From contig OZ316894.1 in the NCBI GenBank assembly GCA_973895155.1, forward strand, positions 24,178,709 to 24,242,708: a stretch of DNA of 64,000 bases, in the 5' to 3' direction. The notes beneath the pieces are model-generated. The model made no database searches. It worked only from the letters and a program-made list of their open reading frames with translations, and had not been told where the DNA came from. Shown in pieces: positions 6,866-59,518 of this stretch; positions within the stretch are counted from its first letter, which is position 1; each line of letters starts with the position of its first letter. The position numbers were made by a program, and so were the translations under genes. Source of the stretch: Marsupella aquatica. Lineage: Eukaryota > Plantae > Marchantiophyta.

Positions 6866-8467
6866 GGATAGGGATCATCCCTATCCACCATTTGGATATG
6901 GATTTTATTGTCTAGAGATCAATTCTACTTAAATACTTGCATTGTCCTTGTCAGCTGTTTGGATAGGGATCATCCCTATCCACCATTTGGACAAGGATTT
7001 TATTGTCTAGAGATCAAGTCTACTTAAATACTTGGATTGTCCTTGTCAAGTGTTTGGATAGGGATCATCCCTATCCACCATTTGGACAGGGATCTTACTA
7101 TCTTTAGATCAAGTTCACATACTTGGATTGTCCATGTCTGTTGTTTGGATAGAGATGATCCCTATCCATGTCAAGTGTTTGGACAGGGATCATCTCTATC
7201 CACCATTTGGACAGGGATCATCTCTATCCGCCATTTGGGCAGGGATCATCCATATCCGCTATTTGGACAAGGATCATTCCTATCAACCATTTGGACAGGG
7301 ATCATTCCTATCAACCATTTGGACAGGGATCATCTCTATCCGCCATTTGGACAAGGATCAGCCCTATCCGCCGTTTGGACAGGGATCATCAATATTAGCC
7401 ATTTGGACAGGGATCATCCCTATCAACCATTTGGACAGGGATCATCTCTATCCGCCATTTGGACAGGGATCAGCCCTATCCACCGTTTGGACAAGGATCA
7501 TCAATATCAGCCATTTGGACAGGGATCATCCCTATCAACCATTTGGACAGGGATCATCTCTATCCACCATTTGGACAGGGATCAGCCCTATCCGCCGTTT
7601 GGACAGGGATCATCTCTTTCAGCCATTTAGACAGGGATCATCTCTATCCACCTTTTTGGACAGGGATCATATGACCCTATCCATCATGTAGACAGGGATC
7701 ATTCTTGTCCGCAATTTGGACAGGATCATCCCTAAGTATGTGTCTTTTGGACTCTATCATCTCTATTCGCCTTTTGGATAGGGATCATCTTCATCCGCTG
7801 TTTGGACAGGGATCATCCCTATCCGCCGTTTGGGCAGCAATCATCCATATCAGCTATTTGGACAGGGATCATCCCTATCAACCATTTGGACAAGGATCAT
7901 CTCTATCCGCCATTTGGTCAGGGATCATCCCTATCTGTCATTTGGACTGGGATCATCTCTATTAGCCATTTGGACAGGGATCATCTCTATCCACATATTT
8001 GGACAGGGATCATATAACCCTATCCATCATGTAGATAGGGATTGACCCTGTCCGCAATTTGGATAGGATCAACCCTATCTATCTTTTGGACTCTTTCATC
8101 TCTATCTGCCTTTTGGATAGGGATCATCTTCATTTGCCATTTGGATAGGGTTCATCCCTATCTAATATTTAGACAGTCACGGATCATCCCTATTAACCAT
8201 TTTGGACAACGATCATCCGTATCCGCCTTTTGGACAGGGATCATCCCTATGCATTTTCAGGACAAGGATCACCCTATCCAGCATTTGGACAGGGATCATC
8301 CCTATCCGGTGTTTGGACAAGGATCACCCTATCCTCCATTTGGACGGGGATCATTCTTATCCGTTGTTTGGACAAGGATCATCCCTATCCGTTGTTTGAC
8401 ATGGATCATCCCTGTCCATTGTCTAGATATTTAGTAACAAGGGATTTTAGGGCTAGATAGGGATCAT
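6866..8467. repeat. Right array: ~28-bp tandem minisatellite ATTTGGACAGGGATCATCTCTATCCGCC built on the same palindrome
   Basis: Dozens of units with a ~28-bp period in the core (7180-8420). Higher-order 4-unit repeats occur near 7377-7600, and ~7660-7800 is duplicated at ~8000-8140. Confidence 0.95.
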
Positions 8468-8605
8468 CGACGTAGTGTGAGTATTAGGTTCAGGTTTTTT
8501 TTTGCTTCATATGCGTTGTCCTTGGATAGGATTGACAACTTTTCGCTTCCTAGTTGGGATCATCTTTAACTAATAATTTACATTTCAAATCGTGCAGGTG
8601 AAAGA

Positions 8606-11600: not shown

Positions 11601-12148
11601 ATGCAGAGATGGCAGGTCTTCAAAATGAGGTCTTGGAAGAGATGGAAGATCAAGCAGCACCATTTGTTGGATCTCGAGCTGAGAGAGAACAAGGACGGTG
11701 GATTCCCCTACAGGATATTCATGAAGGGAACTTTGTATTTCTTCGACCCGAGGATGACTGGGAGAAGAAAAACGGTGGAGGGCATTTCTGGTTGGTGAGA
11801 GCTTTGGGTTCAGTGGACCCTAAGCATGAAGTCCCAACTACTGCTTCAACAAACCCTCATCTGCCTCAACAATATGCTCCAATGTTTCTAGTCAAATGGT
11901 GGAGGCCTAAACACTCTAAACTTGATGTGACTGAGAGTGCACGGTATCTAAACTGTGTCATGTCCACTAAGACATGGGAACGCGATCCAGGGTTTGGTGA
12001 GAACACTCAACATTGGCAGTATGCAAATTCTGCAATGTATGGTTTTAAATCTAGAATGAAAGAAGAAAACATGGCGGGCAGAGGTTTGAAGATTCCTTGA
12101 AATGTTCTACAAACTGTCCAAAGTTATCTCCAAAGGATGGACAAGTAG
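8606..12148 (+). pseudogene. Sola/DUF7869-like DDE transposase with three N-terminal Tnp1/En-Spm (DUF8039-like) repeats; disrupted
   Basis: Motifs CCKQKC, IIHDKMDQ, LQMDNSAKDNKN and FLMVGHTHEDVNALF. ORFs 8606-11254 and 11372-12100 are in the same frame, separated by one TAA (11252-54) after a scrambled segment. A TGA at 12098-100 precedes a final TAG at 12146-48. Confidence 0.75.
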
Positions 12149-12422: not shown

Positions 12423-12770
12423 AAATGTATACTTTTTAGGCCAAATGTACACTTTGTTGCACTCAAAGCTACACTTTCTAGACCAAATACACTTAAATGT
12501 ACACTTCTAAAGCCAAATGTATGCATTTTTCACTCAATTGTACATTTTTTAGGCCAAATGTATTCAAATGAACACTTTTTAAGCCAAATGTACCTATTTT
12601 GATGCTCAAATATACACTTTTCATTGCCAAAATGTACACTCTTTAGGCCAATTGTACATATTTCTATCCCCAAATGTACACTTTTCATTGGCCAAATGTA
12701 CACTTTTTCAAACCCAAAAGTACACTTTTCATTGCCCAAATGTACATAAATCAAATAATAATACACTTTT
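12423..12770. repeat. Degenerate ~21-23-bp tandem array with core GCCAAATGTACACTTT (likely transposon subterminal repeats)
   Basis: Roughly 15 copies of ccaaatgtacacttt variants directly downstream of the DUF7869-like gene. Confidence 0.85.
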
Positions 12771-12779
12771 AATGAATAG

Positions 12780-14289
12780 GCTGATGATTCCGTGTTATGC
12801 CGAAACTGTTATGCTTGCTATTCAACAACACCAAATAAATGTCCTGAGTTGTTGGATACTGCCAATTGGGATAATGTCAGCAAACAATACGACTTCCAAT
12901 GCTCAGGTTGCGGATCTCGAGTCACGGCCCCGAAACAATTTGCAAAGGTTAGTGATTTCTTCTTGCGTTACTGTTGTTGCACACTTTTGTATGACCAGGG
13001 TATGGTATGGGTATTTTTAGGGTATTTATGGGTTATGATAGAGTAACTTTTGTCTAACTAGTGTGACCCACCGCATGCAGGGTGATCCCCGAAATATTGC
13101 ACTCATGGCACACTGGGATGGATTTCAGTCTGCCAAGACTGCCCACAAAAGCACCTGGACTGTAGAGGTCCAAGTTTTAAGCGCCGGGTCTCAAACCAAA
13201 ATTCCACCTATCCCTGTTCTTTTTATCCCGCCATGTGATGACGACAACATAGGAAAAAAAAAGCTGAAATGCTTGGATGCTTTCTTAGAACCATTCATAA
13301 GAACTCTGGAGGAGTTGTTTGTGGATGGGATAGAGGTGGATTACAATTACCCTGTGGAATTATTGGCTGAAGAATTACCCTGTGGAATTATTGGCTGAAG
13401 AATTACCCTGTGGAATTATTGGCTGAAGAGGATAATGTACCGAATGACTCCAGGTGTGTGCTACGAGCACTGTTAGCAGTTTTCACTGGAGATCATCCTG
13501 CACAATGTAAATTTGGGGGCTGGAATGTTACAGGTTATTCCGCTTGTAGGAATTGTAAAATGAGCATTCGATGGATGAAGTGCAAGTTTGATCTTCCTCG
13601 ACAGGAGACTGACCAATCACAACCCCGAGGTTTTCTGGGAAGGGCTGTGTATGACAACAATAGGATGCAGATGAGATATCCACCACCTACACGGAAAATT
13701 GAAGAGGTGAGGGAGGCGGCCAGGAACATGACCAGGGCAGGAACAACTGCAGAGAGGATGAAGATAAGCAGGGAGTGCGGGATTTCAAACATGACCAGGG
13801 CTTGGCGACTACATGAGCTTACTGGATTTTGTTTGAGCAAGGATCTGGTGTATGATACAATGCATATCCTTGCCTTGTGCCTTTTCAAGAAATACTGTGA
13901 GCTTCTAGTTTCGAGTGTTCCCTGTCAACATCAAAAACAGTTTGAAGATGCTCTGGAGGAGGTTACTGCTAGGAAACCGAGAGGTTTTGATGGAAGGTGG
14001 CCTAAACAACCTTTTGAAAGATTGGGATACTTCAAGGCTGAAGAGTTCACGCGATTCATATTGTATTGTCTGCCTCATATCCTCCAACAGATGGACATTA
14101 GTGTCCACTCTGACCTTGGGACGCTTGGGATTCTTTTGGTAGAGATTGCACGCCTCTTTTATATCAGAAGTAGACAAGAGGGTTGGACTACAGCCACATT
14201 GAAAAAAGGCAGGTCTCTACTGGCTTCTTGGAGAGTTCACTCAGAAGAGGCTTGGGGCCCAAATGGAGCAATTCTAGAGCATGTTGCTG
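12780..14289 (+). pseudogene. EnSpm/CACTA-like (Tnp2/TnpD-type) transposase, 5' part
   Basis: Exon CRNC...CSGC...KQFAK, intron 12948-13080, then GDPRNIALMAHWDGF, LDAFLEPF, FTGDHPAQCKFGG...ACRNC, VYDTMH and FKAEEF. Frameshifted by the 28-bp triplication at 13345-13428. Confidence 0.8.
13345..13428 (+). repeat. Perfect 28-bp triplication AATTACCCTGTGGAATTATTGGCTGAAG
   Basis: Three exact copies. The 56 extra bases account for the frame change between ORFs 13063 and 13410. Confidence 0.95.
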
Positions 14290-14343: not shown

Positions 14344-16551
14344 TGTTGGTCGAGATTCCGCCGCTGTCCTGAGGATAAGCAAAGAGGTGGGAAAGGGCCT
14401 CAAGGGACACGCAGGGTGTATGGCTGCTTGAGATAGGAAACGGTTGCAAACAAGACAAAGTATCTACCCTAACCTTTCATCCACATCATCACAAGCAAGC
14501 AAGCATGCTTTCGAAACTCAAGCCATTTACATACTCATATCCAATCACAATCAAAATAACTAGTTCAAGCTTCCCAATGTAATCCTCACAAGTCTAAGCC
14601 CAACATTCAATTGGTCACCATTCCTTTTCCAACACTTGATTGCACACAATCCCTTGCAACCCTCTAAGGTACACAAGTTCAAGCTTACATCAATGTGGTC
14701 AAGCTAAGGGTCACTCTTGGTTGTGGCTAAGACAAGTGGGACATCCAAAGGTATGCAAGGCATCTCTATGCACCATTCAAACATCCAACTTTCAAAACAT
14801 GGGAAACTACTTTCGAAAAGTGACCTAGGGTTGGTCAACAAACTCCTTAACAAACATGGAATTGACCTTAGTCCCTTCCTCTAGTAGAACCACCAAGTAC
14901 AATCCACAAACAACCCATTCCATCAATCGAAAATGCCTTCACTCTTTACTCTTGCAACTTCCCTCATGCATAATAACTACTTTCGAAAGTACCTTCATTC
15001 AACCCATCTACTTTCAAAAACACCTTCAAGCTCACAACAACATTCGAAAATGGCATGAAGACATTCATTCTAACCATACCATCACTCATAGCCAAAGCAA
15101 GGCATCAACACACATCTCAAAAACGAGGATACCTCTCCTCTAAATGCATAGCAAGAAGGCACATGTAGCATCATGGCCTCCAAGTAAAAACATGGGTCAC
15201 AAGCAAGACCCTCCTAGCAAAAATCCCTCCATAGCCTATCCAAGCTTCAAAACCCTAGTCTCCTTCTCTCATACTTCCTTCTTTCAACCAAATCTACTTT
15301 CGAAGCTTCAAGTCAAGGAGTTTACAAGAGAGTAGGCCTTCTTAGTGAGCCATCTCTAATGCAAGACTCCCAAGCTTCAACAAGATTAGGTCTCATCTCC
15401 TCTAAGCTTTCGAAAATCTCCTACAAGTCCATTCTCCTCAAAACTTGAAGCAACAAACCTACATTCGAGTATGCCTTCTTGTGGGCAATCTCTCATGCAA
15501 GCTCCTTATACTTCCTACTCACATCCTACCTCCTTCCTAAGGCTTCGAGTCAGCCTCTCCTACATTCGAAACCTCTCTCCAAATCCTTAGAAAAACCGTC
15601 ACAAAACTCAATCTCTTCACATTCAAAGCTTCTACTCCATCTATCTCTTCACAAAATTGCCTCTACATCTCCTACCCTCAAAATCCTAAGGCCATGGCCA
15701 AGGAGGAGGGCTCCCCCTTCACTCATGCTGGAGCTCCTCTCAAGAGGTTCGCTCCTACCTATTCAAAACTTACTCAAAGACTCAAAAACTGCCAAAAGCG
15801 GCAGCACTTTAGCAGCATCACGGTGTGAGAGAGAGCCCACCCTTCGAACTCTCCTCTTTAGTACTCTCGTGGGAAGGCCTGGGGCAAGGCACAAGCCCTC
15901 CACTTATGGTTTAAGTCCTAGACAATTTTCAGCCCTTGATCATCCATCAAAAAGATCTAAGGGTCAAAAATGAGCCAAAATACCATCCTTTGTAACTTTG
16001 TAACCAAATGAGGCTTCGCACTTTCGAAAAAACCTCGACCTCCTCCAAACCCTAAGGCACGTCCTCATCCTCAATCCTATCCATTCATCCATTGACTCAA
16101 CCAAGATCCACCGTTGATGTAGGTTCAATGAATCTAGTCCTTATTTCACAAAACTAGGAATCTGGCCCATATCTCACAAAACTGATGCACTTGGACCAAA
16201 CCCTCTTACATGCCTTGAACCTGGTCACCTCCTCCATGTATTCAATGAACCTGGTCACCATATCGCCAAAACCCTAGATACCTTGCTTGTTGAGCAAGCA
16301 ACCTCCATTCCGCCAATCCGCCAAATGATAACTTAATCGCTGGTCACAAATGAAAAACATACCCCACAATAGTAACAAGGGTGGGTAGGCTCGACCTCAT
16401 CCCTACCTTGACCCTCATAACTCTACTTCCTCCTTCACATTGGTCAAGTTAGCTCAAGTCAAGTCAACTTGCCCAAGTTAGAAGCAAAATTGGTTTCAAC
16501 TTCCTTCACAAAACATGAGGATTCCTCCTTTAGGATGGAAACCTCATGACA
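14344..16551 (-). repeat. Putative 3' LTR (~2.2 kb)
   Basis: On the minus strand it reads TGTCATGAGG...CTCGACCAACA (TG...CA). It is non-coding and similar in composition to the LTR-like tract at 3.2-4.2 kb. There is no partner LTR and no clear PPT. Confidence 0.45.
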
Positions 16552-17215
16552 CCGCCGGAATGATCCCCAATAGGCTTGGTTAAGCCGCTAAGACCTCTCT
16601 CAGCTCGACACATCCAACTCTCTCACTCCCTTGCTTACTTTCCTTCCTTCTGGTTGATGTGGGCACTCTTCACACAAGTTAATGCGACACACAAATAACA
16701 AAATGACTCCTTCTGACTGAGTCATACCATGCACTTGCCATACAAACAGTACATCTCATACACAAGCTCTGCGAACTAAGCCGTGAGGCCAACTCTATTA
16801 AGCTCTTAGGCATGAGGAAACATGAATATACACAAGGTCACGGTATGACTAACCGAGAGCTTCTCTTACTACTTGATCCCAGCCCGGCTGGTGCAAACTA
16901 AAAACTTGCTAAAGAAGAGGCCCTGAGCTCCCCGCTGCCCAGGTACTTATCCTGGTAGTGGATCCGCCTAATTCTTTGCAGCGTAAGCCTAATCTACCTA
17001 ACAGTAACCTACCTGCCCGAAACTACCTATGTACAGCAAGGCAGGAGCACAAGTGTTGCTCCTACCAGTGGAACCGCAATCCCACTAAGCTAAGTGTCAG
17101 GGCCGCTCCTGGTCCAGATCCTAATCCTAAACTTGGAGATCAGCGCCCGCCCTGCCCACTCACGCCTCCTACCTCCACGTCCGCCCTTCCTAAAAGGAAC
17201 GGCGCCCTTGCACCG

Positions 17216-20200
17216 TCACGACACCGGTTGTGGATCCTCAATGGACGCCCCCAACGCTTCCTCCTCAACCACTGTCGTAGGTTCGTTCTCTGACAGATTA
17301 CCTGCCCTTGACTGAGTCAACTCTCCATCGGCCTGACTAGGTCTACCATCGGCATCGGCGTCAGCTTGGGAATCATTCTCGGCTACAGCCTTAGCCTCGG
17401 CTATGGTCTCCCCGGCCTGCTCAAGAGGCGGATCTGGGATACCGGCCTCATTATTGAGTAGTTCGGCTTGGGCCGCGCCATCCCCACCTTTGGTGATAGC
17501 GGGATCTATTGCCGTGTTCATGCTGGAGGTTGGCGCTGGGTCTACCTCCTTAGTCACCACGGCCAGTGGGGTCGTATTACTCCTTGACCCTGAAGGTTTC
17601 CGCTTCTTCTTCTTTTCTGGTTCGACAGCTGGTCCCTTCCCCTTCCCACTTACTTTCGTCACTGGTGCAGGTGGCGCGGCTTGTTCTTTGGCCAGTACCA
17701 CTCCTGGTAACTTGGTTGCCCCAATTGGAGTTGGGCCTGATGAAGACAAGCACTTAAATACTGCGGCTTGTTTCTTCAGCCGCTCTATTTGGTTGTCGGC
17801 CCGCTGCTGTAGGTTCTCCATCTTCCTCGTGATTTCCTCCAACTCCTCCTGGGTCTCATCCAGGTCCTTGCGCGCCTCCTCTAGTTCCTTCTGGGCTTCC
17901 TCCCGTTCCCTGTGGGCTTCCTCCAGTTCTTTCTTCAAGGTAGCCCTCTCCTCCCGGGTTGCTCTTAGCTCCTTGTCGAGCTCTGCAATGATGACAGACT
18001 CCATCTGGTTCATCTTGGCATAAGTCTGATCAAGCATCTCGTCCTTCTCCCGTAGGTCGTCGGCCTTGAAGCTGGCCGTCAGGGACGCAAGCTCCTGCTG
18101 CAGCGCCATAATCCCTTGATAGGATTTCCCTAACTCGGCCTCCTTCTGCTCAAGGGCTCCGCTGATTTTCTCGAGCTCCCCCTTCAACGCCCATTCCTTT
18201 CTTTGGGTCTCCGCCATGGCTCGGTTGTTGGATGTTATGTGGGCCTCCTCTACATTCCTCAGCTCCTTCTTCCATTTCTCCCTGTCCTTGATTGCGTCGG
18301 CCAATTCTCCTTGGGTCCGCGTTAGTAGATTCTCGATCATCCGATTATCAGATTGTGCGGTATCCAACTGGCCCTACATGATATTTAGCTCATGCCGCTT
18401 AATCCGCAGCTCATCTTGGGCTTTCTTGGCCACCCTCAGGTCCTTGATTTCGGCTTCCCTTTCCCTAAGCCGAGGATGACCTCGTCCTTCTTGCTTCTTT
18501 CCAAGGCCACCACTTCTTCTAATTGGCGCTTCTCCAACATCTCCCTCTGGAAAAAGGGTCCCTGCTCCAACTCCTCCCCAAATATGTTGAGCGCCAGTTC
18601 TCCACACATCTCCCTGTACTCCATGGCTCTGTCTTTAGCATAGGTGGAGGAAGTAGAAGTCATCGGCATCATCCACCGCGGCCTCTGCTCCCAAGCCGTC
18701 TTGTGGATCTCTTCAATCGTGGCTAGAGGTTTGCTTCCTTTTTCGGCTAGCCGCTTGATGTCCTCCGGCCAATCTCCACCTGGCAAATCCTTTTCTCTAG
18801 CCAGTGCTGCCTCCTCTGCCTGCCTGATTCGCTCCTGAAATTCCTGCGCCGTCTGTTTTATGCCATCAAAGCTCGGGGGAGCAACATCTGGTGGGGGAGA
18901 CTCAGGGCTACTCTGCTGGTTGGGGTCCCCTCGTACTACCCTTGGAAGTGTGGGGATAAACCGGCCACAGGTCCTTACTCCTGGAACGTGATGGTCCGAC
19001 CCATAGCCGGAGTTATCATGGCTGCAGTCCTCCACTGCCTCCTCTACTTCTTGGACTTCCGGCTTCTCCCTCTCCTCTTCGTCGGTAGGAGCTTCAGGCA
19101 ATTCTGCCTCAGATTCAGAGCTTGAGACTCCCACGTACATTCGAACACCCTGCTTGGATTCTGGCCTGATTCTGCTTAGGTTGACCTTTGGGGCAGTGTC
19201 CTGCATTGTTGCCGTTGCCATTGTCGTTGCCGATGCCGATCTCTTCTCTTTCTTCAGTAGTTTCAGCAGTTTCTGCATGCCTGGTTGCTGCATCGGCAAG
19301 TCTTCCTTCCTTGGCCTAAACACCTGCTCGATCGTCGGGCTAACAAGTGGTTGAGGCTTCTCTGCTACCGGCCTCGATGCTGGGGCTTCCTCGGGTGCCC
19401 TTACCTGCAGGGGAAGTACTGGGGCAAAGGTCTGACCTCTGGCATACCGGCACAACAGCGGCATGTGATAGCTCCCCATGCCGATTACCTGCTACTCCTC
19501 CTTTAAGATCTTCTTCAATTGGTTGAGGAGGTACCCATTGTAGTCCCGGCTTGGGTCTGGCCTCTCTGCCAGATAGACCTGTGCCTTGCCGATCTCTGCC
19601 CTCGGCAAGTTACAATGCATGGTCACCCGCAAGAAGTCGATCATCTCTCCTATGTGCGGGTTGGTGCAGATGTTCCGGAAGAAGCCATTCTTCGTTGATG
19701 GCCCGGGGAACGACCAGAACTCCTTGTCAGGCAAGGTCTTCCTGGTATCAACTTTGGTCTTATTGCCTATCAGCAAGCCAAACACTTCGGCAATCACCTT
19801 GGGAGTAAGATAGAAATCCTTCCCATATATCCTCGTGCAATTGGTCTCGGGTTCCCATGACCCCACGAATTCTAATAGGTCTGAATCCGGTACCTCTGGC
19901 TTCAGCCATGATAATCTTACAAAGGCCTCTAAGTTGGATCCGGCCATGAAGCCTTGGTACTTCTTGGTCTGCATGGCCGTAAAGCATGCATCCTCCTCCC
20001 GTGCAAAATGTAGTTGCACCTCCACCGGTAGGGTTGCCGCCCAGCCTTTCCAGGTGTCATCCCTGGTTGGAATGGCATTGATGGGATCGACCTCTTCCTC
20101 TTCGGCTTCTCCCTGCCTCCTGCTCTACTGCTCGGCTGGCTTCCTTGGTGCCGCCGACCTCGTTCTTTTTGCCGGAGTGGCTTCATCGTTGACGGCTCCC

Positions 20201-20826
20201 TTCCTCTTCATATCTGCTGCCGTGGAGGTTTCTCCTAGCACCGTTGCTGGGGTCCACCTTTCCGTGCTACCCTTCAATTCCCAGTGTATGTCATTGCAGT
20301 TCTTGATGGCCTCTCGAATGCCGATGATTCTGTCTTCGCAAAACAGAAGATCGTCGAGCTGATTGGAAGTAGGAGTCCACAAGAACTCGACGTTGATGAG
20401 TTTGCCTCCTAAGAAATCCGTCTTCTGTAGCTCCCACAATCGAGCGAGCTCCTGCCATTCTCGAGCGGCCCTTTCTGATTCCTCGTCCTTGTAAGTCTTG
20501 ATGTACTCAGTTGCCCGTTCGAACAGGCATCCCCAGAAATGTGCCGCTTGATTGACGTTGCTCATACCCTCCTTAGGTCGATCATCGGTATCTACTCTCT
20601 CCCCGAGTGCTTGCCTAAGCAGCTGACAGTAGTTGGCCTCCCGTAGTCGTCTGCCTAGTTCGTGCTCGCAAATGAGCCACCATCTCCTGCAAGCGCTCCT
20701 TACCCCTCTCCTCTTCCGGTCCTTTCTCCCGTTGATCCTTCCTAGCCGCCGACGCTTAACGCGCCCTAACCCTAATCTTGTTTTCACCCCCAGCGTCCTT
20801 ACCTCCGGCCTCGGCCTGGGTTCCAT
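17216..20826 (-). pseudogene. Retroelement extra ORF (~1,200 codons): basic N-terminus, plant-transposon-protein-like domain, long coiled coil
   Basis: ORFs 20125-20832, 19492-20025 and 18436-19479 are co-framed and separated by single TAGs. One frameshift near 18460 joins them to 18374-18607 and 17216-18367, which are also co-framed with a TAG between them. Confidence 0.7.
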
Positions 20827-20936
20827 GGTCACCCCTAATTGTTTATATTTTCCTTGTTTTGTCCCTATACTAAGGTGTTTCTAGGGTGCATTCCTGCTTT
20901 ACCCACCTAACTGGCCGAGTGATTCCTGGCTAGGCA

Positions 20937-22269
20937 TCACACTATGTTTATTGGTGCTACTGCTTCGAGAGGATGGTATCAGACTATGGACGCACCAGAA
21001 TAAATCAGAAGGACCAGGAAGTCACTTATTCTCTTCATTTTGCACGACGCTTTTTCACAAAAATATTGTCGTACATTTGGGAAGATGACGATGGACTTTT
21101 CCCTCATCAGAGGGCTTTGGAGAAAGTTCATGCATCCCTGCGTGTCCCTGCGGAGCATCGTAAGGAGCACAGGTGCAGAGTCACTGTACCACCATCTGAA
21201 TGCCCACACTAGCACGAGAATTTGGTGCCAATAGTTTCAAGTCAAATTCTAGCGATGGAATTGTGGGATAGTATGATATCCTCTGTGGAGTCATATGGTT
21301 GCAAGCACATGTTGTTGAGCAAAGGGGTTGGCATAGGCTCAAACAGGAAGCTGACAAAGAAACTGGGGCTGTCCGCCAGGATGTCATTGAAGCAGCATTG
21401 GATAGATGTTGGAGTATTCAACATCAATGAGGACCACGAAATTAGTGAATCTTGCACTCCATTGCGATCAGCTGTGTGGAGAGCTGAAGTGTACAGGCCT
21501 GGCAATCACGTTGTTGTACTGGTAGATGGGAGTACAGATGCTTCACATCCTCAAAACTGGAAAGCAGTACTCCAAAATATTTTCATGCAAGAATTCGATG
21601 GCCACATGGACATATTCTTTGAGGCGGATTGGTATAAACAACAGTATACACAGGATCCTCGGCGAAATTTACTGTCTTGGGAACGAGATGAGTATTCCCT
21701 GTTTACTCTTTTGGAACCAAAAGTATATCACGCACATGGCAACAACTGTAGGCCTATGTCAAGAATTCTACACAAGTTCTTCCCAATTCGAAGAGGCGGG
21801 AGGGAGGTTGTAGCCTTGGAGATTGGAGATACTTTAGTACGGGAACTCCCTACCACAATTGCAAACTGCCTCCTTTCCCAGAGGTAGGGGACATAATGAT
21901 TGCAATAGTGGACTCACTTTCCATCCCTGACGTGTGTGTTGTAAGGGAAGTCCTCCTTCCCAGGCGCGATGCGGCAACAGAAATGCAAGCAAGGTTGTAG
22001 GAGTGGACGGTGCTTCTGACGGGGAGGAGGAGGAGGAGGGAGGGGATGACATGGTAGAATCGCACAATGCAAATGATACTGAGAAGGACCTCGGGAAGGT
22101 TGGTGTGAGCTGGTTGTCTGTACAGGGTTCTCGGTCAAGTTGCCCAATCTACAAGGCAGCGTCACAAATTGATGAACACATCACCTTTCAAATATTAGTT
22201 GCGTTGAGGCTTGATTTTCGTGCAATTGGACTTCACCATGGTATCCCTGTATGGTGGAATACCGTATAG
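20937..22269 (+). pseudogene. EnSpm/CACTA-like transposase, 3' part (includes a BAH-like beta domain)
   Basis: SHYVYWCYCFERMV matches the W-x-F/Y-x-FER motif of EnSpm transposases. It is followed by VYRPGNHVVVLV...WKAVLQNIF...FFEADWY and a frameshifted PPFPEVGDIM segment. Confidence 0.7.
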
Positions 22270-23016: not shown

Positions 23017-26000
23017 TCGTGACGGAGACAATTTGGAAGTCATGCTCGGGGAGGGTAATACGGCATTATCTAGGGATGGCCCCAGTAGACCATAATTTAG
23101 CTAGAAAAGCTGGTTTGGTTCCATGTTTTGAACTCGACTGGCCCAGAGTTGCAATTCTTGCTGTAAAGGAGTTTGCAGTAGGGTATGATCAAGATCGAAA
23201 TTGTGTGTCATTCCGGGGTGCAACTCACACATTCAATAGAGAGGTATTGCGAGCTGCATTTGCTTTTCCGTCTGGAGAATGGGCCCGATTTAAACCTGGG
23301 TTGGTCCAAGGTCAACTAAATTCCATGTTTTCTGCCAAGACGAAAGGCAACCCATACAGTCTAGACAAAATCACTGCGCCATATATGCAGTGGTGTGGGA
23401 TAATCAGGGCGATTTCTGAATTGCTCTCAAGCAAGAGAAAACCCACTCAAGTCACCTCAAAAGACATGTGGGTATACTGGGCGTATTGGTGGGATACGAT
23501 TAGGGTACGTGATCATTTTAGAGGAGTTGAAACTCCCGTGGTGAAGCCCGATTGGGCACATTTGGTGTACGATAATCTGACGAGTGAGATCCTCAGGTTA
23601 AAGTCACACCTATCGAAGAATGGTGTCGTAGACAAACAACTTCCTTGCTATTGTGGCACTGCTATAACGCAGATTCTTGTACACTACGGGTATTCGCTGG
23701 AGGAGCTTATGGTCGAACAACACGAAGATGATCATGAGGAGGACGACAAGGAGGAAGGGGACAATGGGCTCACAAGAGGACGAGGAAGGGGAGGCTGGCT
23801 CAAAAGAGGACAAGGACGGGGATAGTGGCTCACAGGAGGACGAGGAAGGGGATGACGGATCACGAGAGGACGAGGAAGGAGAAGATGGCTCACGAGAGGA
23901 GGAGGAAGGGGATGGTGCGTCTGACGGTGAGGGGCAGCCATCGGAGGTTGTGCCCCAATTCTCCAGGGATGAACATAAATGTCCTCAGGGTGAGCACAAA
24001 TCGCCGCCCTCTGTGCCAGAGTGCATGCGTGTTCTATCACAGCACATACGTGTGCTAGAGGTTGATCTTGCAGAAAAATCGGACATGCTACGAGAAGCAG
24101 TGGAGAATCATAAAAAAATGGTCCTCGATTTGATGAAAGAAACGACAGACAGAGAGTCCGCATATTAGAATTGGAAAGGCAGGTTGGGTTGCATTCAAAA
24201 CAATTTGGCAGTGAGACATCGAGTGGAGAAGGTGAGAGCGGAGGTGACGAGAGATGTTGTGAGGTTCTGGTAGGTCTTGGTGCCAGGGTACATGCAGGTT
24301 ATGATGTAGAGGCATCACAGCGTAGCCCAATTTCAGAGTTACCGCCAGTTTCTGGTGTTCCAGCTATAGTAGAGGTACCAGCAGCAGCACCAGTAGAAGC
24401 AGGTACTTTCCCAATTTATTATCCTGGTGTTCCAGCTATAGTAGAGGTACCAGTAGCAGCACCAGCAGAAGCAGGTACTTTCCCAATTCATTATCCTACT
24501 TCAAAGATACAGCGAGAGGAGTCTATGTCGAGTGGAGGTGACTCACCAGTTTTGGTAGAGTTACAGGCAGCCGCACCACCAGTACTGGCAAAGGTACCGG
24601 CATCAGAAGAAGAGATGTCACTTTTAGAAGGAGAGGCACCAAATGCTGCACCAACATCAAAAGTAGAGGTCTCAGCTACAGAGGAGGACAAATCATCGGG
24701 TGCAATTGCATCAAAAGTACCAGGGTCACCTCCGATTTCTGTTCTATTTCACATGTGTTCCAACTAAGAGTCCGGGATGGGAGGCTAGGACGAGTCACAT
24801 TTCATGACAACCAAATTTTCCTCGTGCTTCAAAGAGAGGGCGAGAGGACTCTATTCCGAGTGGCAGTCACTCACCGGCGAAGAGGAGGGCTATCGAAGTG
24901 GAGGAAGAGGAGGAGGTAGAGGAAGAAGAAGAAAAAGATGAAGTGGAGGATGACAAGCATTCAGAACAAGACATTCACTGGGAAGAGTGTGCCACAGAGA
25001 GTGGAAAGGTTAGCGATTTTTTTTCCTTTGTTGTGTGATTACTGTTTTTTCAGAAACAATGTTCAAGCATATCTAACTTGGCTGTGAGCGAGATCAGCAG
25101 ATTGATATCCAAGGGTCTCACTTGACAGAGGAGGCATGCCCTCCACCTGGTACAATGACTACAGCTCTATATCCACACCAACGGATTGGTCTTGCATGGA
25201 TGTTGGAACGCGAATCCGGAAAAAGCTCTCCAATTGGTGGGATGTTGGCGGATGACCAGGTACAAAAGCCCCCAAATTAAGCCGAAGTTTTCATTCAGTG
25301 GGATACTTTGGGGGTATTTTTGGAGTATGTTAGGGGTACGCGCGCACCTTGTCTGCAAGTGAGTGGGTCCCTGACCATTTTCTTGGCTTGGATTTTTTTA
25401 GGGAATGGGGAAAACCATGCATGTCATAGCGCTATTTCTCGCGAATCGCCCTCATAAGTGTGGGCCAACTCTAGTTGTTTGTCCAGCCAGCGTGGTGATT
25501 CAATGGGGCCAAGAAATAGCTGCAAGGACCTCCAAGATAGCAAAAGTGAAGGTCCTCCTCTACCACAACAAGAGGAATAAAGACATCAACTTTATTTCAA
25601 GCCATGACGTGGTTGTCACTACGTACTCAATCATGATAGGGGAGTCTCCCATTGCTCCAAAGACGTCCAGCGTGCCAAAAGGGAGTATGAAGAGACCTGT
25701 AAAAAAACCTAGACTTGCAGGTCCACTGTTTTTAAGATTAGTTGGCTTAGGTAGTCATGGATGAGTGTCATGTCATGAAAAATAAAACTAGTCAAAATTT
25801 CAAGGCCTCGCATTGTCTCAAGGCAGAGAGGAGGTGGTGCCTAAGCGGTACACCCATACAGAATGAGGCTTCTGATCTGTTTCCTTACTTTAGTTTTCTG
25901 AGGTATTATCCACTAGGAGAGTGGAAGGAATTCTCGCAGTTAAAGAAGCTGCTGAAGACAAGGCCAAAGATAGCGAATGGCATCCTCTCGAAACACTTGG

Positions 26001-27751
26001 TTGCGATTGCGCTCAGGAGAGACAAAAGTAAGCGTGCATGCATATATCATGGTAGAGTTCACTTTGTTTAATCCCAAGCCTGATTTCTTTATCAATTGTG
26101 CATTTACCCTGCCACTATGCTTACATGCAGGCATACTCCCACTGCCCCCTAAGACGATCGAGGTGCAAATTGTTGAATGGAGAACACAGCAAGAATGAAA
26201 CGCTTATTTTGATCAGGAGGAAAAGAGTAAGGAGTTATACAAGGTACGTAAGGCTCTTAATAATCCCCAATGTTGAAGACGTATGAGAGTTCAATTTGAT
26301 CCCTTGAAGGTGTCTGTTCGGTGGCAATTAATGTGCCTGTAATGTTGTAGGAATTCTGTGACGCCGAAAGAGGTGCCTTATCGAATGTGTTGAGCGTTCT
26401 GCTCCGGTTGCGACAATTTGCAATGCACCCGAAACTTCCTTCATTATGTAAAATTCGCGAAGAGGAGATCGGGAACAAAGTGCAAAGAACGCCCCTTAGT
26501 GAGCCTCAACGAGCCTGACTCGTGTCAGAGTTTCAACAATTGAAGATTGGAAGTGCTTGCGTGGACTGCAAGGTGAGTACAGTCACTCTGTGTACGGGGT
26601 ATGATTGGGGTATGATTGAGGTATTTCAGTTAACGTGCTTTGCCTAACAATTTCTGTACGCACTCACTTTAACGGTTGGATTGTGCAGGGGGGCTTGATT
26701 GGAAGTCCATTTCAGATTTCTGGCTATGGCCATGTATACTATGGCATTTGTGCAATAGACCGGGAAGCTGGAACCTGCAAATCGGCAAAATGTTCAAAAT
26801 ACGTGACAGCCCAGGTCCTATACAGGCCAGCTGATTTGAGGCTAGTCAATGGTGGTGCGGAGTCAAAAGGGAAGGCGCGAAGAGAATATGATGTCCGACA
26901 CCCACCTTCTCCAAAATTTGATGCAGTCTTGGAAAACCTGAAGTCGATTCCGCTGGACACTACAGGACAGGGCAGCAGCGAAAGCTTTGTGCCCAGGCAG
27001 AAGGCTCTTGTTTTCTCACAATGGACTTCGTGTCTCGACATGCTTGAGCCACACATTCTGAAGGCTGGTCTAAAGTTCACAAGGATTGATGGAGGAATGA
27101 ATTCCAATGTCAGAGAACAAGCCTTGAATGATTTCAAGACGATCCCAGAGGTACAACCATCATTATCCGTGCAGATCGGTGTCTGTATTTGTTCAAAGGG
27201 TAAACTCTTTATATTCTAATTAAACTATTTCTACTCATTTCATGCAGATCAACATTATCCTCTTGTCCTTGATGGCAATGAACACAGGACTCAACATCAC
27301 TGAGGCTACACATGTTCTTATGGTAGACGGGTGGTGGAATCCCACGGTATAGGGCAAACAAGGCCGGTGAAAGTCGTCAGGTTTATCGCCGAAGATTCGA
27401 TTGAGTTGAAGATTTTGGAGCTGCAAGTAAGATTAGAAGTGCTTGCATGGACTGCAAGGTGAATAAAGTCACTCTGTGTATGGGGTATTATTGGGGTATT
27501 ATTGGGGTATTTCAGTTCGCGTGCTTTGCCTAACAATTCCTGCATGCACTCACTAGTAATGATGAATTACGAATTCCATATATGTGGTCTCTAATTGTAC
27601 GTATGTTGCATGTTTTGTGCAAAACAAAAAATGAGTGATGATCAGAGACATCATGTATGGCTGTGCAATCGGGAAAAAAGATAACATGGAACAAAATCTG
27701 GAGTTCATATTGGGAGAGAATCGGCAGCAGAGGTTCAATGCATCAGAGTAG
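23017..27751 (+). pseudogene. Transposon accessory gene: plant-transposon-protein domain, acidic linker and SNF2-RING-helicase (CHR27/CHR28/FRG-like)
   Basis: Motifs LYPHQRIGLAWM...GGMLADDQ|GMGKT, TLVVCPASVVIQW, DVVVTTYS, MDECH, RRWCLSGTPIQN, LLRLRQ...HP, degenerate RING, KALVFSQWT, RIDG, GLN, WWNPT and GQTRPV. A phase-0 intron at 25009-25100 links it to the upstream acidic ORF. It has several frameshifts and stops, and motif VI is deleted. Confidence 0.85.
23750..23915 (+). repeat. 30-bp coding minisatellite (GS[QKR]EDEEG[DE]x)
   Basis: About five units of ggctcacaggaggacgaggaaggggatgac-like sequence. Confidence 0.8.
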
Positions 27752-28349: not shown

Positions 28350-30130
28350 AGTATATCCACACATACCTTGAGTAATCGTCTATGAACGTGACATAGTATA
28401 ACCATCTAGAATGTGAGGGAGTAGGGGTTGGACCCCACACATCACTATGTACATACTCAAGTACCTCCTTGCTGGTGTGAGTTCCAACTCCAAAGGGTTT
28501 CCTGTGCTGCTTTCCTAGCACACAGTGCTCACAAAATTCCAACTTAGTTACAAGATTGCAAATTAGAAAGTAATCCTTTTTTCTGAAGAATAGCCAAACC
28601 TTTTTCACTCATGTGGCCCAAACGGAAGTGCCACAGCCGGGTCATCTCCTCATGAGATAAAGTTACATTGGCTTCATCACAGACTACACTGCCCTCCAAA
28701 ATGTATAGATTGCTATGTCTCTTTCCCTTCAATACAACTTTAGTACCAGTTGAAACTTGAAGAACACCATTAGCAGAACTCCACTGATGACCATTTGCTT
28801 CTAAAACTCCAAGTGAAATGAGATTTTTCATCATGTTGGGAATATGTCTCACATTCCTCAATGTTCTTACAGCACCATCAAACATCTGAAATCTTACAGA
28901 TCCAAGTCCAACAACTTGACATGGGATTCCATTTCCCATCAACACTGATCCGTTGGAAACCGTGTAAGAACTGAAACAATCTCTCCTAGAGCAAATATGA
29001 AAAGTACATGCACTATCTAGAATCCAGTCATCACTACCTGGATTTGACACTACGTTGAGAGCATAACCTTGACATCACAATATGTCATCATCATCGAGTA
29101 AATCTACCTCATGCGAGCTCAATGCCGCGTTAGCAGAGGTAGTAGGGACCTTTACTCGACAATCCCTTTTCATGTGGCTAGGCTTGCCACAATTTTAACA
29201 TGCAAGAGGCTTCCTCTCTTGCGATTTCCCTCTGGATTTAGATCTCCCCTGTGATGTAGATCTAAACCTGTTCTGCCCATTCGTGCGCTGCGCTGCTCTT
29301 CCCCTGTTCACATTGAGCGTAGTGCCAGAAGAAGATGCTGTCTGTGATTGACCCAACTTCTTCTGAGCATCATCAGATAGCAAGGAGCTCACCACTTCAT
29401 TATACGAAATGGACTTCAGATCTCTGTACAAGAGCACCTGTTTCAAGCCCTGATATGACGGCGGTAAGGAGCTTAGCAGAAACAAGGCCTTATCCTCATC
29501 TTCAACTCCTTTTCCCAGGTTTGACAAATCCACCGCTAGACTGTCAAACTCATCCAGGTGATCCTGCATCTTTCTCCCTTCTTTGAGCCTGAGGCTCATC
29601 AAGAGAGACTTCTTGTACAACCGGTCTGACACATCTTCTCGGTAGTACTTCTCTCTTAGAGCCTTGAACAGTGATGCGCAATCCGCATAATCATCCAACT
29701 GCTTGATGATGTGCGGCTTGAGATAAAGCATCACTGCATTGACAGCAATCACCTGCTCTTGTCTCCACTGCTTCTCTGAAATCTCCTCCTCTCCATCATA
29801 CTGCTCTCGCGAAGAGAGCAAATGAGCTAAGCCCATGGCTCGTAGAACACCCTTCACTTGCTTCTCCCATAGCAAGTAATTAGTACGACCATCGTACTTC
29901 TCCACCTCAAACTTCACTCCTCCAAATCTAGCCATCTCCCTCTTCTTTCCAACTACCGACAGCTTTGGTAGTAACACAACTTCCTCCACTGCACGCCGCA
30001 CCGGTGATCGTACCGGTGTCACTAGTTCCTCCTCAAATGGTAGCAGCTCCTCCTTAGACTCTCTGTCTGACCATCGCGATCCTGAAGCTCCACCGATGCC
30101 AATTCTTCCAGTATCCTTCGAGTCACTCAT
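28350..30130 (-). pseudogene. Copia gag-pol (gag, CCHC, protease, integrase N-terminal part)
   Basis: KFEVEKYDGRTNYLLW; C*NCGKPSHMKRDC (stop at 29195-97); WILDSACTFHIC; LWHFRLGHMSEKGL; LEYVHSDVWGP; YYVTFIDDYSRYVWIY, then truncation. Frameshifts are present. Confidence 0.92.
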
Positions 30131-31709
30131 ATAAAACAATCACAAAAAAACGTCTTTTTTCGAAACTTCTCATAAAACTCAAAACTCAACACCGTTGCGT
30201 AGCCCACAAAGCTAGGAGTCCAATATTGAAAGCCGAAATCAAAATTGAAATTCGACAGAAAAGTTATTCAAATTTTGGTCAGGGTGGGTAAAACCTTGGG
30301 AAACTCCCCCGTTTTGACCACCTCGGAGAATAACCAAAATACCAAGTACAACCCATCGTCAGAATCGCAATGAGATTGGTGCGCAGCGTTGCTAACTCCA
30401 GTGGCAACGTCCTCACCAAAAAAGAACCAAAAAAGTTACCATGTGGCGGATGGAATCCTTGTCGGACGGCCAAAAAACAACTCTCTGTTTTTTGGGAATA
30501 TTCCCACACAGTCCAGCAGGTCTCACAGGGGGCCATTCCCCCTGTGGGAGCGGTTAAAATGGAGGGTGGCAGGTCCCGGCACATGAGGAAACTAGGGAGA
30601 AGGAAAAAATGCTAAAAATGGGGCCTAAAGGGGGTGCTAAAGCCCCTTAAAGCCAAAAACAATTACCCCTGTATTCGGCCGGGGTCGCGCATACGGGGCC
30701 GGGAGTAGTAGTGACGGGCCAGGGCGCATGCTTCCGCATACTCGACAAAAAAAAATTAAAAAATTTGGGGCCGGGGAGGAGTAGCGACGGCCGGCCAGCT
30801 GTCGCGAGGGCAACCGGCGTCGCAAAGCAGTCAAAAGGGGGGGGGGTCGGGGCGGCTGTTTTTGCGCCGGCCGGCGCTGCGTAAACAGCCGCGACAGGGG
30901 GTAGCCGGGTATCGTAGCGGGATGTGAGAGGTTAAGTCGAGGGTATGGGAGGCCGGGGTGTGTATACATACTCCGTGTGTATAAACACAAAAAAAATCAC
31001 ACTAAAGTAACCAAAAAATTTGCCACTAAAAGTGAGAAAAATCCCGGTTACACACCTTAAACGCCGCAGTTTTAAACAAGAAAAATGAATGCCGCCGACG
31101 GGAAAAGTTGCCAAATTTCACCGGCACAGTCTGCTGCTTCAGCAGAGAAAATAATTCCGCCGCGTCGCCTTCACTCCGCGTCAAGTACCAATCCCGGGCT
31201 CAAAACGACCGCCTCACCAAGATCAAACCGTTGAGCCGTAGCACTTCGCATTTCTTCCACCAAGTCGGACGTCACGAAGAGAAACCTGGTTCAGATGAGA
31301 ACAAGCTCCATAGCTTGTGAAAAAACCTGAACGCCTCCTTCACTCGTCACGACACACTCGGTAACAACTCGGTAGCAATTCAACTACCGAAATGACCAGC
31401 TCGCTTCAAGCTTCAACTTGAGCTATAATGTGCGATCCCTCCCGCACCGCACGGCTCACACCGTTGAAAAATGCGATCTCTGGTCTCTCCCCCGAAAAGC
31501 TGTCGAACACGAATAAAACCTGAATGACGCAAATTTCAATTCCTCCGCATACCTATCAGCGAGTTCTAACCACCGTTAGAAAGCCCTCTCACTAACCTAT
31601 CCTCACAGCCACACACATTCGAATTTCATGCGACGAAACTCCGAATGTACCATCGGCAATGAACGCTGGAAAAACCTGTCACGAAAAAACCTTGTCACCT
31701 CCCAGGCAT

Positions 31710-31721
31710 GCTCTGATACCA
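31710..31721 (-). promoter_or_regulatory. Primer binding site (tRNA-iMet)
   Basis: TGGTATCAGAGC on the minus strand, 2 nt after the LTR's CA. Confidence 0.92.
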
Positions 31722-31723
31722 CT

Positions 31724-32067
31724 TGTTGAGCATAGACGACATTCGTAACAGCAAGCCCATGAACCATCCAACGCACAATAGTCGACACAGAGAGATACGT
31801 GGTTCACCTCCACATGAGGCTACGTCCACAAGAACACACAAGAGTTTTACTGCACTCTAGGCCGACCGGCCATACCAAGCATCCACAGCACAAGCTCTCC
31901 CTATCTCTCAACTAGCTCCATAACAATGAGCCTAAGTTCCACCAGGGTCTGGCATCAGCCCTGGCTATATGCACACCAGCACTACCGCTAATATTAGCTA
32001 AGTCTTAACCCGAGTTAGACTAACTCTGGTTAGCTCATGAGTCACAAGACTAGAGCAATATCTAACA
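31724..32067 (-). repeat. Copia 5' LTR (~344 bp)
   Basis: Minus strand reads TGTTAGATAT...GCTCAACA and includes the GTGGACGTAG...GAACCACGTA U5 motif typical of Copia LTRs. Confidence 0.8.
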
Positions 32068-35000
32068 ATATTCATAGAATATTCCATAAATTTAGGGGTA
32101 AAAAATATAGTAAAAATCAACTTTATTTTCTTAAGTTTTAGGGTGTTATTACTTGTAAACTCCACATGTGATATGGGCCCGCGAGGGAAAAATGAATGTG
32201 TAGAAAAATTGTAATCTATATGTGACAATTGAGCTTATTTGGGTGCCACCTGGCCTCCTTGGTGGGAATTGTCTCCTTGGCTCATGAGTCAGTGCTTGCT
32301 TTCCCCCCTTTGTGGGGCTTTTGAATATTAAAAAATATTTTTGAGTAAATTAAGTTCATTTGGTTTTTACAATTGGGCAAACTACTTAAGGCCGTATGAA
32401 TAAAATGTGAAGCACTCAATCTATTCAAAGTTTCATCTATTTTGAATAGATGAAACTTTATAAGGTCTTTACATAAGAACCAAATTAAATGTACTTTAAA
32501 TGTTATTTTTTAAAGTAAACTCTTAAAAATAGGTAGAGTAATTATGTGGAGGGGAAGAGTATTGGGAGAAAGCAGTGAAGCTCTCAATAAAAAACTGCTA
32601 TGGCCACTGACATACTTTTAGGATAGAAGTGGTGATAGAGTTAGTGACAAAGAAAATTTATGGATAGATGTGCAGATTTGGTTACTGACATTGTACTTTA
32701 TCTACAGAAATGTAAATAGCAATGTCCAAGTACACTTTTATGTTTTGATCCAGTCCATGCAGGTTTGGTTTATCCATGAGAGCTTCACTAACAAAGTGCC
32801 AGTCCATCTGTGCTTTAACTTCAAGTATTAACCTCTTTGCAACTATTTGAAAAAGAAATAAAAAAGAAATGAAAAAGGACATTATTAACCTCTTTACAAG
32901 TATTAATAAAGCGTGCATAAGTATGGGGTACATGAACGAACTTAAACTGTCTACCATTTCTTATTTAGGGACACAAATTCAAGTGTAACCAAATTAAAAT
33001 TTACTTGGCCTAAGTTATTGTGAGTAACACTAATTTTGCACCTATAAGTACCGTCATTTTTTAACCTCTTTTGTCAATGGAGCCTATTGAATGTTTAAAT
33101 ACGAAGAGTTCACTAGGGGGCAATGAGCATCTCGATGACAATCCAATCTGTCCAGTCAACCCTATTCTTACAGTCCACCACAAGTTCTGCCATTTTCAGT
33201 GCTACCACTACCATCCAGATTGCCATCGAGGTTTCCAGCCATGGTGTGATGGTGTAACCCATATTGTCCATTTTGGTTTGGTGATCTACTCCTGAGGGAG
33301 TATTAACAGAAGCTCAAAACTCTGGCTCAAACTTGTCAAAGGTGGCACTGTGAAGGCAGCGTCTGGCAGGCAGGGATCCTGGTTTTTGACATGGCAAGAG
33401 AGGGTGGGGCATGCAAAATGGGTTTGGCAAGGAGCTTGCAACAAAGATAATTGTCCCAGTCAGGTATTCCCCCCAACAGGTGGCGATGCAGGAGCGGGTG
33501 CAGTAAGTAGACAATCCATTAAAATAATAGAGTAGTTTCATGCACCTATCCAGTTTAATCATGCACTATGAGGGCTTAGTCATGCACTATGAGGGCTTCA
33601 GGGAGGAGGAGGCTAGGATGCGTGACAACAGCTACATATGGGAACTGCATAAGTGATTGTCCAATCATACAATTATTGGGTAGTCTATAAATGATTTCCA
33701 TTGCATTTATCACAGTCCACACCATGGATAAGTGCATGACCTCACAACACAATTATTAGGGGAAGTGCACCCCAAAGTGCATAACCCATTGTCCTTGCAA
33801 TTATTAAGCGGGATTCATTGGTTTGTTGAATGGGCCTCTTGGCCTTCTCAGGGTCTTTCCTTTTACGCTCCCTCTTCATTGTGTCTTTTTTGCCTTTGGG
33901 ATCAGGTCTCCTGTGTTCATGTATTTTTGGAAGTGTTATATATAGTGGGCAGTGTATAAATAATAATTTCAATGCACTGTCACAGTCCAGACCGTGGATA
34001 AGCACAATCATTTAGGGAAGTGCTAGCATCTAATAATAATAAGTGCTAGTATCTAATAATAATAATAAGTGCTAGCTACCTTTCAAATGTACGCTTAAAA
34101 GGTAAGGTCTTAGGCGTCCTACCTAGTCGTTCCAGTCCTCTGGATGACTGGATCTCTGTGTCTGATGAGAGGAATGACACTGTACCTCCTGCCTACTTTT
34201 CAATTTGATCTGTAGCAAACACCATTTTGCTCTGTAATAATTACCGTCTTTGGTGAGGTATGAAGAACGATCAGAAGAATTTCACTTTCAGTCGACTGAA
34301 TGATGATTCGCTTGAAAAGTCCCACTCGGACCATACTATTAATGACGGGAGAAGTAAGAGTCTCGAACTGAGCTTGCGAGACGATCATCGGTATCCCTCT
34401 GAGCTCCTGGAAGTTTCACAGCTGCTTCAAGGTTTAACTACAGTTCGGAGGTGTGAAAAGAAAATGAGTTCGGAGCAAAACCTGCAGTTCAAGGTGTGAA
34501 AAGCCAATGATGTCCGCTCGTGTGAGCCACCTACTCAAGTGCCACACACACGTTACTCATGCTTTTGTCGGCAAATTTGAGCGTCGGATGTCGTCGTTGG
34601 TACCTGTATGGATTATGGCAACAGTGAATGTCAGAGTCAAAGGTACGCCAGGATGAAGTGTTGCGGCCAAACTGCCAAAGTATATAATTCAACGCATGCA
34701 TTTGCATGTTGAACACGATCGAAGCTGCATTTCGTAGATCAGACCGTAGAGGATGCATGCCCCGCAAGAAAATCACTACGATGGCTTTCGCAAGGCTTAA
34801 ATCAACGAACGATGAGCACAATCTGAGCGCCTTTGGAAAGATTGACGCTTAAATTGATAAGGTCTGTGTGGTTTGCTCGAGCTGTAAGAAGATTGTTGTT
34901 GCTTAAACCTAGGCCGTTGCCTGCTTTTCAAGTCTCTAATTCTATTGGGAGTGTTTTGAATCGGATTGACTGTCACTGTAAGACCATTGCGAACACAGAA

Positions 35001-55590: not shown

Positions 55591-59518
<3,928 letters not shown>

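Follow-up and report, generated by a model that had tools for sequence, protein, structure and literature searches.

The window analysed here is a stretch of 64,000 nucleotides (nt) from the liverwort Marsupella aquatica (contig OZ316894.1 of assembly GCA_973895155.1, positions 24,178,709 to 24,242,708), and its plus strand carries, at 23017..27751, a decayed gene of a CACTA-like element in which a transposon-type domain precedes a SNF2-RING chromatin remodeler. The layout given by an initial annotation of this DNA, made from the letters alone, was found as described: an upstream domain is followed by acidic repeats, a coiled coil, a phase-0 intron and a SNF2-RING-helicase. The upstream domain occupies 23017..23723 (+), directly behind a phase-1 acceptor (AG at 23015-16), with a stop-free frame at 23019-23723, and is delimited by its homologs, a structure model and a fold match to the transposon protein VANC; a start at ATG 23076 was rejected because the homologs align from 23019. 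The rest of this long exon (23724..25008, +) encodes acidic 30-bp repeats (23751-23917), a heptad-like (coiled-coil-like) stretch judged by eye at ~24016-24200, a Pro/Ala/Glu linker that holds a 72-bp duplication, and a basic and acidic tail ending in ESGK. The fusion-joint intron (25009..25100, +; GT..AG, 92 nt, phase 0) separates ESGK from IDIQ, with which the motor begins.

The motor (25101..27751, +), defined by Pfam matches and the exon model, consists of seven exons at 25101-25259, 25402-26027, 26131-26243, 26351-26572, 26689-27150, 27248-27426 and 27623-27751, which match SNF2-rel_dom (E 2.8e-14 and 3.3e-17) and Helicase_C (E 3.3e-6 and 1.4e-5). The order SNF2_N, RING, Helicase_C is present together with ADDQG and WCLSGTPIQN, and the RING is degenerate in the window copy. 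The motifs ADDQ/GMGKT (split by an intron, marked here by a slash), KALVFSQWT, WWNPT and IGQTRPV stand as first reported, whereas ERRWCLSGTPIQN has E and not the K that had been written for it. By sequence, the closest solved eukaryotic relative is Rad5 (E 5.9e-19), and a query with the helicase-C part returned just three bacterial SNF2 proteins. Among the 204 columns conserved in host FRG proteins, 63 are altered in the window; motif V and DEAQ, which has become DECH, are among them. Ten frame, stop or splice breaks were counted across the gene: four in the linker exon (frameshifts of +1 at 23766 and of +4 at 24752, within 24752-55, a further shift near 24150, and a stop at 24805), then a shift at ~25735-53, stops at 26196 and 26516, loss of motif VI through a 31-nt deletion at 27347-27353, a last acceptor that is spoiled at 27620-22, and a stop at 27632. 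The window copy is dead, as had been supposed.

Other copies of the gene are in better condition. Contigs of four of six sequencing runs were compared over 20900-32800, and those over the gene include its introns. Seven contigs (group X1) extend from the 3' part of the TnpD-like transposase gene to past the SNF2 gene at depths of 386-480, while the baseline, taken from seven rare-variant joints in the neighbouring copia stretch, has a median depth of 31.5. The depth ratio corresponds to 12-15 copies for X1, 6-14 for a second group (X3, three contigs) and 7-28 for a third (X4, six contigs), although depth is not the same as copy number and a heterozygous baseline would halve these estimates. 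Carriage of the gene by a multi-copy element family, as initially claimed, is thus well supported by contig depth. The window differs from the X1 contigs at 56 of 3,843 bases, and five of the ten breaks can be read in other copies, where all five are absent: the absence of those at 23766, 24752 and 26516 is read directly, that of the shift at 25735-53 from a net length difference of -1 in two contigs, and in X1 a joint that adds 31 nt brings motif VI back in frame. Two of these five lie in the linker exon. Of 24 listed differences, the window has a C>T-type change at 19, of which 15 fall in CG/CHG contexts compared with a background of 30% (p 2e-5); therefore, the window copy was methylated and decayed recently.

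The motor shares its introns with host genes. The host FRG set comprised 80 metagenome loci, the best 80 of 223, chosen by WCLSGTPI and DECH patterns and so biased towards FRG; the majority of them carry FRG motifs. Read through with X at the breaks, the motor of the window can be aligned from end to end with the best transcripts, to which it is 31-35% identical. Spliced models were made for 20 of the 80 loci, a few of which merged or misplaced an intron, and the host introns fall (with phase) at ADDQ/G (0), RRTK/G (1), FK/EY (0), C..C.N/D (0), PE/V (0) and LQ/EEK (0). All six core introns of the window match a host FRG intron in position and phase, which accounts for six of the seven host core introns (HQ/KIAL is missing from the window), in a comparison that covered land-plant FRG genes and had no plant RAD5 or RAD16 control. 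All six are displayed by each of five models (L011, L015, L019, L060 and L063). Therefore, as the initial annotation had proposed for a host FRG-family remodeler, a host FRG gene was captured as DNA. Furthermore, hosts have a phase-0 intron 14-16 residues ahead of PPxG, and the fusion intron of the window lies 17 residues ahead, near the position of the host intron that precedes the DLSQP exon, so that the N-terminal exons of the host gene appear to have been replaced by a transposon exon at or near a host intron.

Three relatives (P0004-6) are 55-62% identical to the window and have exon ends and DECH in common with it; they keep Walker A, DExH and motif III, and together with the window they form a single clade (100/100) whose stem is very long (2.0-5.2 changes per site). 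Columns that are invariant within this family include 52 of 80 host-conserved sites and 30 of 115 elsewhere (p 8e-8), and such tracking of host-conserved columns fits long purifying selection, as would be expected. The relation to CHR27/CHR28 in particular, which the initial annotation had asserted, finds no support at that level of detail. Over ~590 columns, the 14 land-plant host rows are all 35-38% identical to the window gene. In a 15-row tree, which left out 20 of the 35 rows of a quick tree, the window lies inside the land-plant rows without a clear placement, beside the FRG1/2-type group at 45/87, and two alternatives, the FRG4/5-type group (p 0.21) and a position outside every land-plant host (p 0.34), are not rejected by approximately unbiased (AU) tests. 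The quick tree of 35 rows has the window as a long branch at an open fork outside the host FRG clade; named RAD5 and RAD16 sequences are outside both sets, and the FRG1/2 and FRG4/5 labels of the host rows were assigned from motifs, not from named references. Because the placement among hosts is unsettled and the identities are equal, the CHR27/28 label is too specific.

The upstream domain could be related to known proteins by its predicted fold. It has 21 homologs at E<=0.001 (best 2e-41, 44% identity), the longer of which run on into an acidic linker and coiled coil as in the window. Pfam holds no family for it, and neither DUF1985 nor the plant mobile domain (PMD) was matched in Pfam by the window domain or by the 18 homologs scanned. 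A single-sequence fold was uninformative (pLDDT 36.8), while a model built with 21 sequences reached a pLDDT of 91.5 and a pTM of 0.88. When this model was compared with 48,161 chains by VIA-align, the sole match at Z>=5 was 9lnk_A, VANC21 bound to its target DNA (Z 8.3, root-mean-square deviation 4.3, 205 residues aligned; next-best Z 2.2), and Foldseek gave 9lnj_A, also VANC21, at a TM score of 0.54 (E 1.3), with others at <=0.22 among the matches listed. The predicted match spans the whole domain and is isolated, though moderate, and it ties to the VANC fold what had been called a domain of transposon type. ESM Atlas leads at 0.86 give a weak sequence lead toward PMD/Athila/Transposase_32 kin, and the homolog P0024 matches Transposase_32 at E 0.0046, below the cut-off. 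No match was obtained with the upstream domain in a PDB sequence search or a BFVD fold search, and viral and prokaryote contigs yielded no relatives. The retrotransposon-like insertion that lies upstream of the gene encodes, at 19495-20124 (-), a domain that matches the profile of the VANC-like family (hhalign probability 81.6, E 1.1e-5; hmmsearch E 8e-4); an insertion of this kind is a possible source for the VANC-like domain.

Candidate targets for such a domain are present in the introns of the element. GGGTAT is repeated at an 11-bp period on the plus strand in four units in a TnpD intron (12996..13039, first GGGTAT at 12998) and in three units each in the ADDQ/G intron (25310..25342, first at 25312), the RING intron (26595..26627, first at 26597) and the last intron (27481..27513, first at 27483). 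The motif was first picked by eye; in a later unbiased scan of all hexamers at periods of 8-14, GGGTAT at 11 bp was the top match with 4 places, compared with at most one in 60 shuffles and three control stretches. GGGTAT arrays occur nowhere else in the window and at none of the periods 9, 10, 12 and 13, and there are none in the 841,292 bases of the 80 host FRG loci. Within the element, exact GGGTAT is found 17 times on the plus strand and 0 times on the minus strand. Other copies have one more unit in the RING-intron array, through an 11-nt insertion behind 26603. In addition, a segment of 126 bp that comprises the RING-exon end piece and the array (26543-26668) recurs at 27429-27554 with 90% identity, and such duplication into the last intron is a way for arrays to spread. 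Decayed GGGTAT-like units at 22442-22474 and 22510, upstream of the VANC-like exon, fail the array test. In the homolog P0007, whose domain is 44% identical to that of the window, residues ~399-424 are an 11-nt tandem array that is read through and explains 22 of the 24 residues of its tail; its unit is related but different, with a GTATG core. VANC21 and VANC6 are reported to target tandem motifs that share one orientation and lie in introns and upstream regions (PMC5735166).

We tentatively propose that the element encodes one spliced protein, in which the VANC-like domain binds the arrays and the FRG-derived motor keeps cognate elements open. A host FRG gene was first captured as DNA, as the shared introns show, and, judging from contig depth, it is very probably carried in a young family alongside the TnpD-like gene. 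The host N-terminal exons would then probably have been swapped for the transposon exon by way of the phase-0 intron, giving one protein of ~1,300 residues. The VANC-like domain is on balance expected to bind the arrays, in which each helical turn holds one unit, with multimers permitted by the coiled coil, and the motor would shift nucleosomes or silencing factors off the element, which would thereby resist silencing. The wider claim that a CACTA lineage independently built VANC-type anti-silencing, armed with a stolen remodeler of the silencing pathway, as a transposon-encoded, sequence-specific and self-targeting chromatin motor driven by ATP, and that its 11-bp arrays diverge with the binding domain across families, is more doubtful still. 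An anti-silencing or self-targeted remodeling system had been suggested for this locus at the outset, and the best support for that idea comes from two features that the initial annotation missed, the fold resembling VANC and the intron arrays of 11-bp period.

Several observations weigh against this proposal. The host proteins FRG1/2 promote silencing (PMC8171942), the window copy has C->Y changes in the RING at 26725 and 26740, and motif V departs from hosts (K>M, L>T). The methylated-cytosine decay occurred at this very copy, which means that sister copies, if they protect at all, did not protect it. The other five breaks, including the shift near 24150 that is critical for the fusion, have no reading in the contigs listed, and the same holds for the stop codon of the window at 27350. 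Furthermore, none of the contigs listed for other copies spans 25008-25101, so that it is equal depth that links the domain to SNF2 in other copies. With at most 479 amino acids, the 21 domain homologs are all too short to hold a SNF2 protein, but they look like single-exon calls, which neither show nor exclude a fusion. The match to VANC21 is middling (Foldseek E 1.3; 4-8% identity), a Z below ~13 can, as the tool cautions, reflect a common arrangement in helical folds, and the VIA-align and Foldseek searches rest on one and the same model. Finally, two of the four arrays, those of the RING intron and the last intron, derive from one duplication, and the arrays lie 24-56 nt past 5' splice sites, where they could act in RNA.

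Four other explanations, each of which we consider unlikely, should be weighed against the proposed anti-silencing motor. The first accepts that the fusion is real and self-targeted but takes the motor to be weak or dead, so that the protein would act as a decoy, sitting on the element and sequestering the partners of host FRG proteins, e.g. SUVR1/2, with which FRG1/2 associate (PMC8171942). The very long stem and the altered host-conserved columns, motif V and DECH among them, would suit such a loss of activity. In contrast, the motor retains Walker A, DExH, motif III and FSQW, as well as motif VI in X1, and the sites conserved among the relatives tend to be those conserved in hosts; many of the changes in the window may be private decay.

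An equally improbable alternative is that the VANC-like exon and the SNF2 exons give separate products of the element, through a stop of their own or through alternative splicing. The shift near 24150 and the stop at 24805 were not seen resolved in the contigs listed, and the longer domain homologs stop after the coiled coil; a search for longer homologs of the upstream domain found none among 577 candidates, but that search was weak. Against separate products, other copies are free of the linker frameshifts at 23766 and 24752, which joins the frames toward ESGK, and no start context of its own is apparent for the exon after 25100, with the joint near a phase-0 intron of the hosts. The fusion might also, with a similarly small chance, serve transposition by clearing nucleosomes or other proteins from element ends or target sites, with no role in methylation. 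A position of the accessory-gene type behind TnpD and the closeness of the motor to Rad5, a DNA translocase, would agree with this, but the arrays are internal and intronic while the element end has a different 28-bp motif of its own, and the sole fold match is an anti-silencing factor. Slightly less probable again is passive cargo, in which a fast-evolving host FRG paralog was recently picked up in the manner of Pack-CACTA elements and the arrays have nothing to do with it, being intron features or splicing signals: P0004-6 could be host genes, but all motor exons through the stop are carried in order with frames open in sister copies, and the same array occurs in the TnpD intron and three captured-gene introns and in 0 of 80 host loci, which points to a shared history inside the element.

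The proposed anti-silencing motor resembles the VANC proteins of VANDAL elements, which are Mutator-like, in several respects. The predicted fold (9LNK/9LNJ) is followed in both by a variable, repeat-rich region and a coiled coil, and both have same-orientation tandem motif arrays in element introns with variation in copy number (PMC5735166). For KIU, the Ulp1-bearing VANC forms, the likeness extends to a captured host enzyme domain that is attached to the protein (PMC13317346). In contrast to VANC, the carrier in the window appears to be CACTA-type, with a TnpD-like neighbour and a CACTG terminus; there is no detected sequence similarity (4-8%) and no Pfam match to DUF1985 or PMD; the motif is GGGTAT instead of YAGTATTAY or AGTTGTMC; and the function proposed for the window gene is putative. 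The enzyme is a SNF2-RING motor and not a Ulp1 protease as in KIU. VANC has been described as dicot-specific, and VANC and the plant mobile domain as structural kin (PMC13547354; bioRxiv 10.1101/2024.09.27.615353 for the kinship). The system is therefore predicted to work like VANC and KIU, yet it is not a VANC member, because it has neither the DUF1985 signature nor a Mutator-like host element. A second transposon superfamily appears here to combine a VANC-like domain with arrays that resemble targets.

The motor itself is like the FRG/Ris1-like remodelers (Arabidopsis FRG1/CHR27, FRG2/CHR28, EDA16/FRG4 and FRG5) in its domain order, ADDQG, WCLSGTPIQN, the C-x4-C end of the RING, the six intron positions and the 35-38% identity over ~590 columns, and it differs from them in its replaced N-terminus, the missing HQ/KIAL intron, DECH for DEAQ, a very long branch and its multi-copy carriage by an element. 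By these sequence features it is an FRG-family derivative, and orthology with CHR27/28 lies outside the evidence. The plant mobile domain (MAIN/MAIL1) and the Athila/Transposase_32-type retrotransposon domains are reported structural kin of VANC (PMC13547354; bioRxiv 10.1101/2024.09.27.615353), but the window domain has no Pfam membership, and the PMDs reported in DNA transposons occur in Mutator-like elements (MULEs), fused to transposases and not to SNF2 (PMC5418596). In addition, accessory genes of EnSpm/Plavaka elements (fungal TET/JBP; red algal PAG1-3) are chromatin- or DNA-acting cargoes of the CACTA clade that have been proposed to act against silencing; unlike the window gene, they encode dioxygenases, methylases or SET domains, and the main texts of these reports name no element-borne SNF2 (PMC12730594; bioRxiv 10.1101/2025.02.11.637652). 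A catalogue of active terminal inverted repeat (TIR) elements in 1,007 plant genomes contains, in two supplement files, 0 entries for 'SNF2' and one for 'Helicase_C', the latter in a Carex CACTA cluster (PMC12973397). In the literature covered, we found no SNF2 gene in a CACTA element and no fusion of VANC or PMD to SNF2; preprint supplements, which were outside the search, may bear on novelty.

Because the attached enzyme is of a known type, the effector is visible and could be tested by a single Walker A mutant. If the proposal is true, a remodeler of the silencing pathway has been turned against its host, and VANC-like systems reach beyond Mutator-like elements. Nature would also have supplied a DNA-addressed remodeler whose candidate target motif is short.

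The CACTA-like setting that had been claimed is backed on its left side, by the CACTG end and the TnpD-like gene, but no right terminus matching the CACTG end was found within the 64-kb window. The likely left end (5105..8430, +) comprises CACTG at 5105, subterminal repeats in both orientations at 5105-5770 and a 28-bp tandem array at 7178-8417. It is followed by a DUF7869 transposase-like gene (8570..12100, +; Pfam DUF7869 E 1.8e-30) with a single internal stop at 11252, which, judged by position alone, would be part of the same element. Since the CACTG end lies on one side of this gene and the TnpD-like gene on the other, there may be two transposase-type genes per element, or a nested element. 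A copy of the subterminal motif lies within its open reading frame at 9613-9646, and its N-terminal part had no match in ESM Atlas. A 22-bp tandem array (12423..12746, +) stands upstream of the TnpD-like exons. Residues 28-135 of the domain homolog P0023 match this repeat region at 12414-12786 (E 2e-5, low complexity), and in P0023 the repeat-like text passes straight into a piece of the VANC-like domain; P0023 probably arose from a related element by deletion.

The 5' exons of the TnpD-like (CACTA tnp2) transposase gene (12780..14289, +) contain DPRNIALMAHWDG, the TnpD signature, and give two adjacent matches to Transposase_21 (profile 84-110 and 118-156) at E 0.0077-0.019, below the cut-off. 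The gene is split by the retrotransposon-like insertion of ~6.6 kb (14346..20941, ends approximate, -), which is outside the family unit, and its 3' part (20942..21887, +) includes HYVYWCYCFER and is covered by an X1 contig at 20967-21978 with a depth of 399. The locus of the VANC-like domain and SNF2-RING motor begins 1.2 kb past the end of the TnpD-like reading frame on the same strand. The VANC-like domain and the TnpD and DUF7869 genes were absent from all 80 host FRG loci searched. On the other side, a copia element truncated in its integrase (28350..32069, -; 5' long terminal repeat (LTR), gag and integrase start, with no 3' LTR) abuts the family sequence at ~28350, and its family has a very high depth; the right end of the element was probably lost at this junction. 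Farther along the window lie a host-like gene with ABC-transporter-like exons judged by eye (35344-46218, +), a 129-bp tandem repeat in four copies (54446-54960) and a second host-like gene (56177-56821, -) that matches Oxidored_FMN (Pfam E 2.5e-27).

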